A DNA stretch of 64,000 nt. Origin: an uncultured Myxococcales bacterium. GTDB lineage: Bacteria > Myxococcota_A > UBA9042 > DTJE01. Made by a program: the position numbers and the translations under genes. Position 1 is the first letter of the stretch. Each line of letters begins with the position of its first letter. The stretch is taken from positions 30,346-94,345 of the forward strand of contig CAIZWN010000083.1 of NCBI GenBank assembly GCA_903936705.1. The letters are read 5' to 3'. The notes beneath the pieces are model-generated. The model saw only the letters and a program-made list of their open reading frames with translations, ran no database searches and was not told where the DNA came from. Positions 52,956 to 54,902 of this stretch are shown here, piece by piece.

Positions 52956-54902
52956 TCACTGGTGGGGCGTCAGCACGATTTCGTCCGTGCAATCGGACCA
53001 GCTTGACCCGTGATAGGCACTGCATTTCTCGACCTTGACGGTGCCACCGGCAGGATTGCTGTAGCCCATCGTGACCTTCAGTTGGTCACCGCAGGTGCTG
53101 GTGCCATGGTGATAGGAAAGGTACGCCTCCTCCAGGCCGTTCTTCATGATCCAGAACTCGAGGTTGCTGGAGAAGCAGTCGCTGTTGCTGAGGGTGAAGC
53201 TGATCTGATGGTCCTTGTCGTCCATCTGTCCGTTGGGCAGCAGGGGCAGCGTGAAGTTCTTGTTGCCGCTGAGCGACCCACCGGACTTCGAGCTGAGGTT
53301 CAGGAACGCAGCCCCATCGTTCAGGACTACCAGTCCACGATTCATTTTCAGGTACTTGAAGTTCCACGTCGGGATGACCGGGATCACAACGCAGGCGATC
53401 TTGGTGAAGTTGGCGCTGACGTTCGTCGCCACCGGGACATTGTTCAATAGATACTTTGCCGTCAGCTGCAACGGGACACCGGGATTGGTCACCGAGAAGA
53501 CGTTGTTGCTAGAGAAGATGGCATAAAGAGCGTCCGCCGGGTTGTCGGGATCGATGGGCGCGAAATCGGAGCTTCCGCCGGACACCCACAGGGTGATGGA
53601 GGAATTCTTCAGGGTCGTGGCGTCTTCGACTGTGATGCCAGCGCTTCCCCCGCCGATTGCCCCCTTGATCGCGACACTGACGCTATCCACGCTTTCCGAC
53701 GATTCGACCGCAAGGTAGATCTGTCGCCCGTATTTGACTTCCGAGATGTATACGGGCGGATTTCCCACCGCGACTTCGGGAGGGGTGACGTCCACGAAAT
53801 TGGCACCGTCCAGGAAGACGTTCTCGAATGCCGAATTGCCCGTATTTGCATCGACTGGCAGGGCGAACTGGACACCGTAGAAGATCTGGGAGTACTGCAC
53901 CACGAAATGGTTCTTCGTTGTCGTGTTCTTCAGCTTGGCGTCCAGTTTCACCGCGAAGCCTGCGTCAAATGCCAGGCCCAGGTTGATTCCCGCCTCCTTG
54001 GCAGAACTCGCCTGCGTGACGTCAACGACCACTGCCGCCGGAGTGGCTTCGACGGTCACGGCGTGCAGCGCATCGTTGATTGCCTGCCGGACCTTGGCAG
54101 GGGTGACCTGGTCCACGGTAAACGAGTAGGGGGCTGTCGCGTTCAGCGTCGGCCCAACCAGGGACAGCGTCCCGCCGCTGCGGGCGATGCTGCTTGCAAT
54201 GAAATTGCCGGCGGGCAGTCCCCATCCCTGTATAACCGAGCCGGGATAGACGACGCTTTCATCGGGCATGACGATGGTGCCGCTGGACATCGTAGCGACG
54301 GTTGTTTGCGAGAACGGCTGGCTGGTGCACTGCACCACTTCGCCAGGGTCACCCTGTCCCGGATAGGTTTCGGCATCGTCTGTTGGTACCGGGGCTCCCG
54401 AGTTCGGGTCGTAGGGCAACAGACCGGCCGCGCAGATGCGCTGCCGACCGGAATTGCCGTACAGAGAACAATCGGTGGCCGGCGCGCTTGTTGTCCGCAG
54501 GGCCCACCAGGAAGACAGTCCGACCGGGCTGTTCGAATCCACAACTCCAGTAACGACGTGGGTCGAATCGGCACTGTGGTCCCCGAGAATCTTCCCGCGC
54601 CAGGTCCCGGCGCCTTCTGGGACCCACTGGACCTCGGCGTAGCCGTCCTCTGTGATGCGCGCGTTGGCAATGATGTCGCCGTTGGAACCATCCCGGATGA
54701 CCGCCGTATCGCCGGTCTGCTCGACCTTGATGGAACTGAGGTTCAGCTCGCCGGCTTCACCCGAAGTCTCGTATAGTCCGTAGGTTCCCGACATGTTGAT
54801 CAGTCCGGGCGAAGCGTCCTGCCCGGCGTCCTGGCAGCCCATCATGCCGAGGCCTGTGAAGGCAGCGGCGGCAAGAAATACAATGGCTCGTTTCGCTTTC
54901 AT
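52956..54902 (-). CDS. Cholesterol-dependent-cytolysin-like (CDC-like, MACPF/CDC fold) secreted lipoprotein
   Basis: Signal/lipobox MKAKRAIVFLAAAAFTGLGMMGCQ. Segments VVQYSQIFYGVQF, NPPVYISEVKYGRQIYLAVES, KNSSITLWVSGGSS and FSVTNPGVPLQ line up with perfringolysin-type domain-3 segments (ISFKQIYYNVNV, NPPAYISSVAYGRQVYLKLST, KNSSFKAVIYGGSA, FNRETPGVPIA). No Trp-rich undecapeptide. The long ORF begins at TTG 55070 but the signal peptide starts at about 54902. Confidence 0.6.
   Translation of the reverse strand: MKAKRAIVFLAAAAFTGLGMMGCQDAGQDASPGLINMSGTYGLYETSGEAGELNLSSIKVEQTGDTAVIRDGSNGDIIANARITEDGYAEVQWVPEGAGTWRGKILGDHSADSTHVVTGVVDSNSPVGLSSWWALRTTSAPATDCSLYGNSGRQRICAAGLLPYDPNSGAPVPTDDAETYPGQGDPGEVVQCTSQPFSQTTVATMSSGTIVMPDESVVYPGSVIQGWGLPAGNFIASSIARSGGTLSLVGPTLNATAPYSFTVDQVTPAKVRQAINDALHAVTVEATPAAVVVDVTQASSAKEAGINLGLAFDAGFAVKLDAKLKNTTTKNHFVVQYSQIFYGVQFALPVDANTGNSAFENVFLDGANFVDVTPPEVAVGNPPVYISEVKYGRQIYLAVESSESVDSVSVAIKGAIGGGSAGITVEDATTLKNSSITLWVSGGSSDFAPIDPDNPADALYAIFSSNNVFSVTNPGVPLQLTAKYLLNNVPVATNVSANFTKIACVVIPVIPTWNFKYLKMNRGLVVLNDGAAFLNLSSKSGGSLSGNKNFTLPLLPNGQMDDKDHQISFTLSNSDCFSSNLEFWIMKNGLEEAYLSYHHGTSTCGDQLKVTMGYSNPAGGTVKVEKCSAYHGSSWSDCTDEIVLTPHQ

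Follow-up and report, generated by a model that had tools for sequence, protein, structure and literature searches.

CDC-like proteins (CDCLs) are now held to be the largest branch of the superfamily that comprises the cholesterol-dependent cytolysins (CDCs) and the MACPF proteins, and only two of their systems, both two-component systems from Bacteroidota, have been studied. The family was defined by Evans et al. in 2020 (PMC7527733) through the same features that are found in the protein described here, with aligned examples from Labilithrix, Streptomyces, Deinococcus, and other genera. Bacteroidota CDCLs were subsequently shown by Abrahamsen et al. in 2024 (PMC11169675) to be two-component, protease-activated, complement-like systems that kill bacteria, and a structural paper from 2025 (PMC11952106) is likewise limited to these two-component CDCLs. 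Here we analyze a CDCL gene at positions 52956–54902 (minus strand) of a 64,000-nucleotide stretch of contig CAIZWN010000083.1 from an uncultured Myxococcales bacterium (assembly GCA_903936705.1), the whole of which is referred to below as the window. The gene product, so far annotated as a "hypothetical protein", is a well-supported CDCL lipoprotein.

The superfamily and the lipoprotein secretion route are common to this protein and the Bacteroidota two-component CDCLs (BfCDCL-L/S and EaCDCL-L/S; PMC11169675, PMC11952106). For both, the targets are probably non-sterol, and an N-terminal region may be inhibitory. The Bacteroidota systems, however, consist of adjacent genes for a long (L) and a short (S) component that are activated by a protease of the target cell, activity depending on proteolytic loss of an inhibitory N-terminal loop or propeptide, with Bacteroides adding an adjacent, co-transcribed surface immunity lipoprotein (BcdI-like), whereas the partner is absent from the 64 kb window. 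EaCDCL-L from Elizabethkingia anophelis (PDB 6XD4/8G33) displays weak sequence similarity to the protein (E = 1e-6); relative to it, the present CDCL adds a predicted N-terminal eight-stranded barrel, a different C-terminal β-sandwich, and a Cys192/Cys504 pair, and has no adjacent short partner. Classical CDCs, including pneumolysin, perfringolysin O, intermedilysin, and desulfolysin (6NAL), are characterized by domain 4 (D4), the undecapeptide ECTGLAWEWWR, and a Thr-Leu pair, none of which occurs here. They are also freely secreted, while the present protein is predicted to be lipid-anchored and displays extra N- and C-terminal domains together with a conserved cysteine pair in domain 2 (D2). 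A further parallel is offered by the BSAPs, MACPF toxins of Bacteroidales, which are described (PMC12853789) as lipoprotein pore-forming toxins of diderms whose accessory domains at both termini carry the receptor specificity. Their branch is that of the MACPF proteins (PF01823), while the present protein belongs to PF01289, and MACPF structures are only weak Foldseek matches to it. The 2020 catalogue already contained CDCLs whose C-terminal domains diverge and that carry lipoprotein signals, and such a protein is unsurprising to a specialist; new here are the N-terminal barrel, the C-terminal β-sandwich, and the Cys192/Cys504 pair, and the locus is no new kind of system.

Gene product and family assignment

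The gene and its export signal comprise the following features.

52956–54902, minus strand: complete coding sequence of the CDC-like lipoprotein, 648 residues plus stop, from the open reading frame (ORF) list and translation
54906–54911, minus strand: GAGGAG ribosome-binding site, 4–9 nt upstream of the ATG with a 3-nt spacer, read directly from the sequence
54834–54902, minus strand: predicted type II (lipoprotein) signal peptide, residues 1–23, with lipobox GMMG-C23, from the sequence pattern

The interval corresponds exactly to the coding sequence with its stop codon, and translation starts at an ATG at 54902. An in-frame TTG lies upstream at 55070 in the same minus-strand ORF ending at 52956; the gene callers of independent assemblies picked the identical 648-residue product. 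This protein is found unchanged on about 12–15 metagenome or metagenome-assembled genome (MAG) contigs in ENA, JGI, NCBI, and Logan, the longest being 259 kb, and its 100% conservation across 15 contigs from several samples indicates that the gene is maintained. The signal peptide MKAKRAIVFLAAAAFTGLGMMGC satisfies the PROSITE-type lipobox rule, with a basic N-terminus, an uncharged h-region, and Gly at position −1 before Cys23, so that the lipoprotein signal claimed in the original prediction stands. The N-terminus MKAKRAIVFLAAAAFTGLGMMG-C23 reads as a basic segment, a hydrophobic segment, and a lipobox (...GLGMMG-C23), a layout consistent with a type II signal. This lipoprotein assignment is pattern-based only; of the top 150 relatives, 147 are complete proteins, and 80 of these likewise carry a lipobox.

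A single Pfam family, PF01289 (Thiol_cytolysin), is matched by the protein, with 89.9 bits against a cut-off of 25 and E = 1.8e-25; the alignment runs from residue 205 to 491 and covers profile positions 53–337 of 353. A phmmer search against the PDB returned pneumolysin as the best match (1.1e-17, residues 206–499), followed by suilysin, intermedilysin, listeriolysin O, and streptolysin O, with perfringolysin O at ~1e-11 (residues 312–496). Lower-scoring matches included desulfolysin 6NAL from a Gram-negative bacterium, the Elizabethkingia CDCL-long chains 8G33/6XD4 (~1e-6), and CDCL-short 8G32 (3e-5). In these alignments, NPPVYISEVKYGRQIYL pairs with pneumolysin RPLVYISSVAYGRQVYL, VSGGSS with ILGGDPSS, and FSVTNPGVPLQLT with FTADHPGLPISYT; the conserved CDC blocks quoted in the original prediction are visible among them. 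The homology to CDCs that had been placed in the central 170 residues is real and well above chance, but its extent was drawn too narrowly, since it covers ~300 residues spanning domains 1 to 3 (D1–D3). No ECTGLAWEWWR or W[ED]WWR-like string was found in the protein, and a Pfam scan gave no match to PF17440 (CDC domain 4) even at E ≤ 1, in agreement with the earlier claim that the undecapeptide is missing.

Homologues were collected with HMMER, which was run exhaustively on 1.84 billion cluster representatives: 1,342 relatives passed E ≤ 1e-3, of which 537 reached ≤ 1e-10 and 23 reached ≤ 1e-30. At 37% identity over the full length, P0002 (650 residues) is the nearest relative, with the others at ~30% or below. 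A word-index homologue search, run with the full protein and then with the 21-sequence alignment, returned the query itself only, and a scan of the genome collection with the CDCL protein gave no match. The query and 20 HMMER relatives constitute alignment A1, in which Q339, F363, P382, G392, S401, A415, G442, S470, P474, C504, and G620 are invariant and C192, Y342, Y391, R393, G443, N573, C576, C604, and G605 nearly so.

An AlphaFold 2 (AF2) model built on A1 reached a predicted local distance difference test score (pLDDT) of 72.8 and a predicted template-modeling score (pTM) of 0.58. A single-sequence AlphaFold model had a pLDDT of 34, and the alignment-based model alone was used. When the model was compared with the PDB by Foldseek, the top 29 matches were all CDC chains (E = 1.2e-22 to 7e-15), followed by EaCDCL-S and EaCDCL-L (6e-14 to 4e-12) and then by the MACPF proteins GNIP1Aa, perforin, Plu-MACPF, and stonustoxin (4e-6 to 1e-3). 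The bent central β-sheet and two flanking helical clusters that are typical of the CDC/MACPF fold are present in the predicted structure. The sequence scores of D1–D3 are 67 bits to single-component CDCs versus 31 bits to EaCDCL-L and 26 bits to EaCDCL-S; in both sequence and structure, D1–D3 is nearer to classical single-component CDCs than to Bacteroidota CDCLs.

Taken from its sequence and predicted fold, the protein is a member of the CDCL family, displaying every defining feature of CDCLs that can be examined in silico. The reciprocal profile search, in which PF01289 was the only Pfam family recovered, and the fold comparison, in which 29 CDC chains ranked first, both agree with the CDC-like interpretation of the original prediction, as does the presence of the F/Y-F/Y-Xn-YGR motif and Gly-Gly pair in a protein without domain 4 or undecapeptide. 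It is not a classical CDC, lacking domain 4, the undecapeptide, and the Thr-Leu cholesterol-recognition pair, and it is not a two-component CDCL as defined by adjacent long and short genes.

Predicted pore-forming core

The core and its switch elements map as follows.

53382–54338, minus strand: CDC D1–D3 pore-forming module, residues 189–507
53913–54011, minus strand: helical bundle 1, predicted transmembrane hairpin 1 (TMH1), residues 298–330, ASSAKEAGINLGLAFDAGFAVKLDAKLKNTTTK, from the AF2 model
53601–53699, minus strand: helical bundle 2, predicted transmembrane hairpin 2 (TMH2), residues 402–434, SESVDSVSVAIKGAIGGGSAGITVEDATTLKNS, with AF2 helices at 405–416 and 425–432
53886–53888, minus strand: Q339, the conserved Gln preceding the motif
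53877–53882, minus strand: F341-Y342, first half of the F/Y-F/Y-Xn-YGR motif
53724–53732, minus strand: Y391-G392-R393 of the F/Y-F/Y-Xn-YGR motif
53574–53579, minus strand: Gly442-Gly443 hinge pair at the start of the αβ loop, aligned to the pneumolysin Gly-Gly pair

The AF2 layout places long strands at 189–204, 331–346, 383–401, and 492–507 and the Gly-Gly pair directly after a strand at 435–441, while the inter-strand segments 298–330 and 402–434 are modeled as helical or disordered. In the TMH1 region, a helix at 301–307 and a low-confidence stretch lie between the strands ending at 297 and starting at 331. TMH1 displays alternating hydrophobic and polar residues with a β-amphipathic moment of up to 2.2 (whole-protein 90th percentile 1.42), and its 33 residues agree with the 33–34 of the family. 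Alternation in TMH2 is weaker, with a maximal β moment of 1.39, and the segment contains a GGGS turn.

A role of the F/Y-F/Y-Xn-YGR motif and Gly-Gly switch in the prepore-to-pore transition is established for perfringolysin O (PMC7527733). In the present protein, F341-Y342 and Y391-G392-R393 are separated by 48 residues and constitute this motif. YGR is kept in 142–150 of the top 150 relatives; G442 occurs in 148 and G443 in 138, and this pair aligns with the Gly-Gly of pneumolysin. Taken together, Q339, F341, Y342, Y391, G392, R393, G442, and G443 are each present in 138–150 of the 150 (with F and Y counted as equivalent at 341, 342, and 391). Because amphipathic inter-strand segments and the full YGR/Gly-Gly switch are retained, the sequence argues for a protein that is still able to form pores and against a degenerate homologue.

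Accessory domains and the conserved cysteine pair

Three regions flank the core.

54492–54797, minus strand: predicted N-terminal eight-stranded β-barrel domain of ~100 residues (N-domain), residues 36–137
54339–54491, minus strand: Pro/Gly/Asp-rich linker, residues 138–188, with a small Cys145...Cys157 loop containing RQR, from the sequence
52959–53381, minus strand: predicted C-terminal β-sandwich of ~140 residues (C-domain), residues 508–648, in place of CDC domain 4, from the AF2 model and alignment A2

The AF2 model contains an eight-stranded β domain with strands spanning 39–137. We infer that the barrel matches returned by Foldseek belong to this N-domain, given its eight predicted strands and the family G-x-W motif at strand 1; the longer Foldseek matches would belong to the C-domain. 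One member of the N-domain family has a weak match to the Cap15 receptor family, and the N-domain profile (A4) gave no match in Pfam or the PDB. With the flexible linker, the N-terminal extension amounts to 165 residues. Within the linker, pLDDT falls below 50 only at 140–143, and elsewhere the means of 10-residue blocks are 58–84; it may represent a protease-accessible region.

In the C-domain, nine strands (513–637) are predicted, with pLDDT block means mostly of 84–91 and dips to 62–70, and the conserved residues are N573, C576, C604, and G605. Its profile (A2) has no sequence match in the PDB, CDC D4 chains included, and matches no consistent Pfam family; a single member has a match at E = 0.001 to a galactose-binding-like domain. 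The C-domain was encoded in 21 fetched loci, every time fused to the CDC module, and was found in genomes of Phycisphaerae, Planctomycetales, Desulfobacterales, Leptospira, Geminicoccaceae, Granulosicoccaceae, and Nitrospirota. Among the 150 nearest cluster representatives, the N-domain occurs in 18, the C-domain in 39, and both in 17. Presumably the C-domain sets target specificity.

The C-terminal region had been described as rich in Cys; this amounts to five Cys in the last 149 residues, at 504, 576, 604, 627, and 638. C504, C576, and C604 are conserved across the subfamily. Cys192 and Cys504 occur together in 110 of the 150 representatives and are both missing in 29, and they co-occur in 88 of 134 cases in the genome loci, where Cys576 and Cys604 co-occur within the C-domain in 12 of 16. 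Cys192 is located where the first long D2 strand starts, Cys504 where the last one ends. Since the first and last D2 strands of CDCs are antiparallel neighbors, the two cysteines should meet at the base of D2 beside the C-domain, and their strict co-occurrence supports a disulfide. This bond would probably staple the first and last long D2 strands just above the receptor domain. In the literature searched, neither the recurrent three-part architecture nor the conserved cysteine pair has been described.

Relatives and taxonomic distribution

To survey genomes, a degenerate DNA pattern for NPPxY[VI]xxVxYGR was run on 185,579 species genomes (GTDB r232 species set). It matched 117 stretches, essentially all of which encode PF01289-like proteins. 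Judged by this pattern, the set contains no genome of the present species. Most titles name Myxococcota (Labilithrix, Kofleriaceae, Polyangiaceae, Haliangium, and Nannocystis), Bdellovibrionota, Saprospiraceae with other Bacteroidota, Chloroflexota, Streptomyces with other actinomycetes, Rubrivivax, Leptospira, Deinococcota, Gemmatimonadota, or Planctomycetota, together with one Nitrospirota MAG. An undecapeptide-like motif was present in 0 of the 150 nearest cluster representatives.

A single CDCL gene within the 8 kb fetched is the arrangement in 112 of the 117 related genome loci. Arrays of at least three CDCL genes (three to five) all come from Chryseobacterium or Bacteroidota, and the two loci with two genes belong to a "Proteobacteria" MAG and a Gemmatimonadaceae MAG. 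Two of the Chryseobacterium loci (L011 and L081) carry at least five consecutive CDCL genes and exceed the described pairs and triplets, and positions 2010–6113 of locus L093, from the MAG "Proteobacteria bacterium Bin_66_1", hold a tandem CDCL pair outside Bacteroidota.

Predicted mode of action

We consider it likely, with appreciable room for doubt, that the protein is a secreted, lipid-anchored CDCL that acts as a single-component pore former on a non-sterol receptor. After Sec export, it would be lipidated at Cys23, and the diderm host, probably Myxococcota-like, would present it on its outer membrane or on vesicles. The C-terminal domain would bind a non-sterol receptor of another cell, monomers would homo-oligomerize via the edges of the D3 sheet, and a loop controlled by the Gly-Gly pair and YGR would free the two helical bundles for insertion as a large β-barrel pore. 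A homo-oligomeric mechanism is proposed because D1–D3 lies nearer to the classical single-component CDCs than to the Bacteroidota CDCLs. The most likely targets are microbes, either competitors or prey, and not animal cells that contain cholesterol. This ecological view is based on the bacterial killing by the only CDCLs tested so far (PMC11169675) and on the clade carrying NPPxY[VI]..V.YGR, which consists mostly of Myxococcota, Bdellovibrionota, Saprospiraceae and other Bacteroidota, Chloroflexota, Actinomycetota, Planctomycetota, and Leptospira.

Several points weigh against this single-component reading. The characterized CDCLs need two components and proteolytic activation (PMC11169675, PMC11952106), a literature search found no functional work on non-Bacteroidota CDCLs, and the single-component mechanism is an extrapolation from classical CDCs. 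The AF2 model is of medium confidence, as its pTM indicates; the accessory folds taken from it and the proximity of Cys192 and Cys504 are predictions, and surface exposure of the lipoprotein is assumed. The host phylum is judged from RelA/SpoT at 61% identity to a cluster with MAGs labeled "Myxococcota bacterium" and with "Deltaproteobacteria bacterium ADurb.Bin058"; the same protein displays 81–84% identity to metagenome proteins and ~45% to Geoalkalibacter. TMH2, at 33 residues, is 4 shorter than the family norm of ~37 and is only moderately amphipathic, and the gene context offers no clue to the target.

If the protein were instead a cytolysin directed at eukaryotes (protist grazers, fungi, or an animal host), the new C-terminal domain would confer binding to a non-cholesterol receptor. 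Such a change has a precedent in the intermedilysin-type CDCs, whose altered receptor specificity within the CDC family illustrates that this property can shift. D1–D3 is furthermore most similar to eukaryote-targeting CDCs, and CDCL homologues occur in Leptospira and Streptomyces besides predators. We nevertheless regard a eukaryotic target as unlikely, since the protein has neither D4 nor the undecapeptide nor the context of the Thr-Leu cholesterol motif, the metagenomes seem to come from the environment or from engineered systems and show no link to a host, and the CDCLs tested so far are antibacterial.

A more far-reaching proposal, which we think quite unlikely to hold in full, extends the single-component reading to a distinct clade of disulfide-stapled CDCLs composed of a lipid anchor, an eight-stranded barrel, the CDC core, and a new receptor domain with Cys residues. 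Environmental diderms that live by predation or competition (Myxococcota, Bdellovibrionota, Saprospiraceae, and Planctomycetota) would carry these proteins on the cell surface or on vesicles and pierce the envelopes of prey with them, and at this locus the protein would perhaps form a prey-lysis cassette with the flanking DD-peptidase and N-acetylhexosaminidase lipoproteins described below. If this is true, bacterial predation would here employ a CDC-type pore whose trigger is gated by redox state or by a protease.

The clade to which the gene belongs is large, widely distributed, and functionally untouched, with D1–D3 closer to classical single-component CDCs, and several of its features are directly testable: the cysteine pair, the C-terminal domain of a sub-clade, and the N-terminal barrel of a sub-clade. 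One characterized member would reveal whether diderms have single-component, cholesterol-independent CDC pores, what these bind, and whether they serve predation or competition. The gene is thus moderately interesting as an experimental entry point, and annotation gains two domain profiles (A2 and A4) that are now missing from Pfam.

Gene neighborhood

The CDCL gene is flanked by two predicted lipoprotein genes and followed by a stem-loop.

50634–52742, minus strand: β-lactamase-fold (AmpH-like/class-C) lipoprotein of 702 residues, PF00144 at E = 4.7e-59, lipobox VSGC
52891–52931, minus strand: stem-loop 25 nt past the CDCL stop codon, RNA fold of −42.1 kcal/mol, z = −6.2 versus shuffles
55400–57094, plus strand: GH3 β-N-acetylhexosaminidase, a NagZ-like lipoprotein, upstream of and divergent to the CDCL gene, NF003740 at E = 2e-55, lipobox VAGC
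57202–57835, plus strand: VapBC-type toxin-antitoxin pair after the GH3 gene, with an 80-residue antitoxin-like ORF and a 128-residue PIN-domain protein

As originally predicted, the β-lactamase-fold lipoprotein is encoded downstream on the same strand, 213 bp away. PF00144 accounts for its N-terminal half, and a C-terminal extension of ~340 residues matches no family; JGI annotates the protein as "CubicO group peptidase". The stem-loop consists of a perfect 13 bp helix with 4 bp more beyond one mismatch. It lacks a U-tract and did not appear among the calls of the terminator scan; it may act as a terminator or attenuator that divides the CDCL gene from the β-lactamase-fold gene. A repeated REP-like (repetitive extragenic palindromic) element was rejected, the stem-loop being unique in the window. 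An exported, lipidated NagZ-like GH3 protein is unusual, because NagZ is normally cytoplasmic.

The two flanking lipoproteins bear on whether the protein could be part of a complement-like CDCL system of several components. In such a system it would be the "long" component that binds the membrane, with a short pore-forming partner, an activating protease, and/or an immunity protein encoded elsewhere or with the neighboring lipoproteins in those roles. The only CDCLs studied work in this manner (PMC11169675, PMC11952106), and the long N-terminal extension with its flexible linker could be an inhibitory pro-region. A second CDCL gene nearby had been suggested as something to look for; a search of every six-frame ORF in the 64 kb window with a family hidden Markov model found no second PF01289-like ORF, and the hypothesis of a two-component partner in the window was rejected. 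Relatives are likewise overwhelmingly solitary (the 112 of 117 loci noted above, with larger arrays limited to Bacteroidota). The neighbors of the four closest relatives (P0002–P0005), which include a transglutaminase, a patatin, a metallophosphoesterase, and regulators, differ among themselves and from the window genes, and phmmer with the window neighbors found no β-lactamase-fold or GH3 homologue in ~120 other CDCL loci. Considering also that D1–D3 scores 67 bits to single-component CDCs versus 31/26 to EaCDCL-L/-S, a multi-component system is decidedly unlikely.

The β-lactamase-fold gene as a functional partner or immunity gene is unsupported, its adjacency being conserved near no relative and a strong hairpin lying between the two genes. 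A non-lytic role in envelope remodeling or nutrient acquisition, together with the flanking AmpH-like DD-peptidase and NagZ-like GH3 lipoproteins, is highly improbable: both flanking genes do encode predicted lipoproteins of peptidoglycan-related families, and some bacterial MACPF-domain proteins are not known to be lytic, but the adjacency recurs in no relative, a very stable hairpin precedes the β-lactamase-fold gene, the GH3 gene is divergent, and all prepore-to-pore switch residues are kept.

On a larger scale, the CDCL gene lies in a ~12.8 kb block (49.0–61.8 kb) containing mqo, the β-lactamase-fold gene, the CDCL gene, the GH3 gene, VapBC, a gene for a 368-residue protein, and a PAS histidine kinase gene. 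Two related MAG lineages, with NuoD and NuoH in the same clusters at 90%, lack the block after nuoI, and one of these lineages encodes at that position a 443-residue protein and a Heavy_Cys_CGP/MopE protein that resemble the window at 61.8–64 kb. Because related MAG lineages carry other genes after nuoI, the block behaves as a variable islet. Recent horizontal transfer is unsupported by composition, the G+C content at third codon positions being 0.76 for the CDCL gene and 0.75–0.80 for neighboring and housekeeping genes.

The partial complex I cluster preceding the islet (~43300–48960, plus strand) comprises nuoA, nuoC, nuoD, a nuoG-like gene for 517 residues, nuoH, and nuoI, without adjacent nuoB, E, F, or J–N; the same truncated arrangement is found in related MAGs. 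Further upstream, an ORF at 12403–15018 (minus strand) encodes 871 residues, of which 20–231 match aldehyde:ferredoxin oxidoreductase and ~714–854 a 4Fe-4S ferredoxin, and this sequence suggests an anaerobic or microaerophilic host. The ORF at 28185–31010 (plus strand) encodes 941 residues with no NCBIfam match, and that at 21140–22483 (plus strand) a GEGP-motif diheme protein (NF041762, E = 7e-130). At ~63400–64000 (plus strand), a large Cys-rich protein with Heavy_Cys_CGP and MopE-type copper-binding domains runs off the window end, and the 469-residue protein encoded before it displays a weak resemblance to Leptospira ImpL63.

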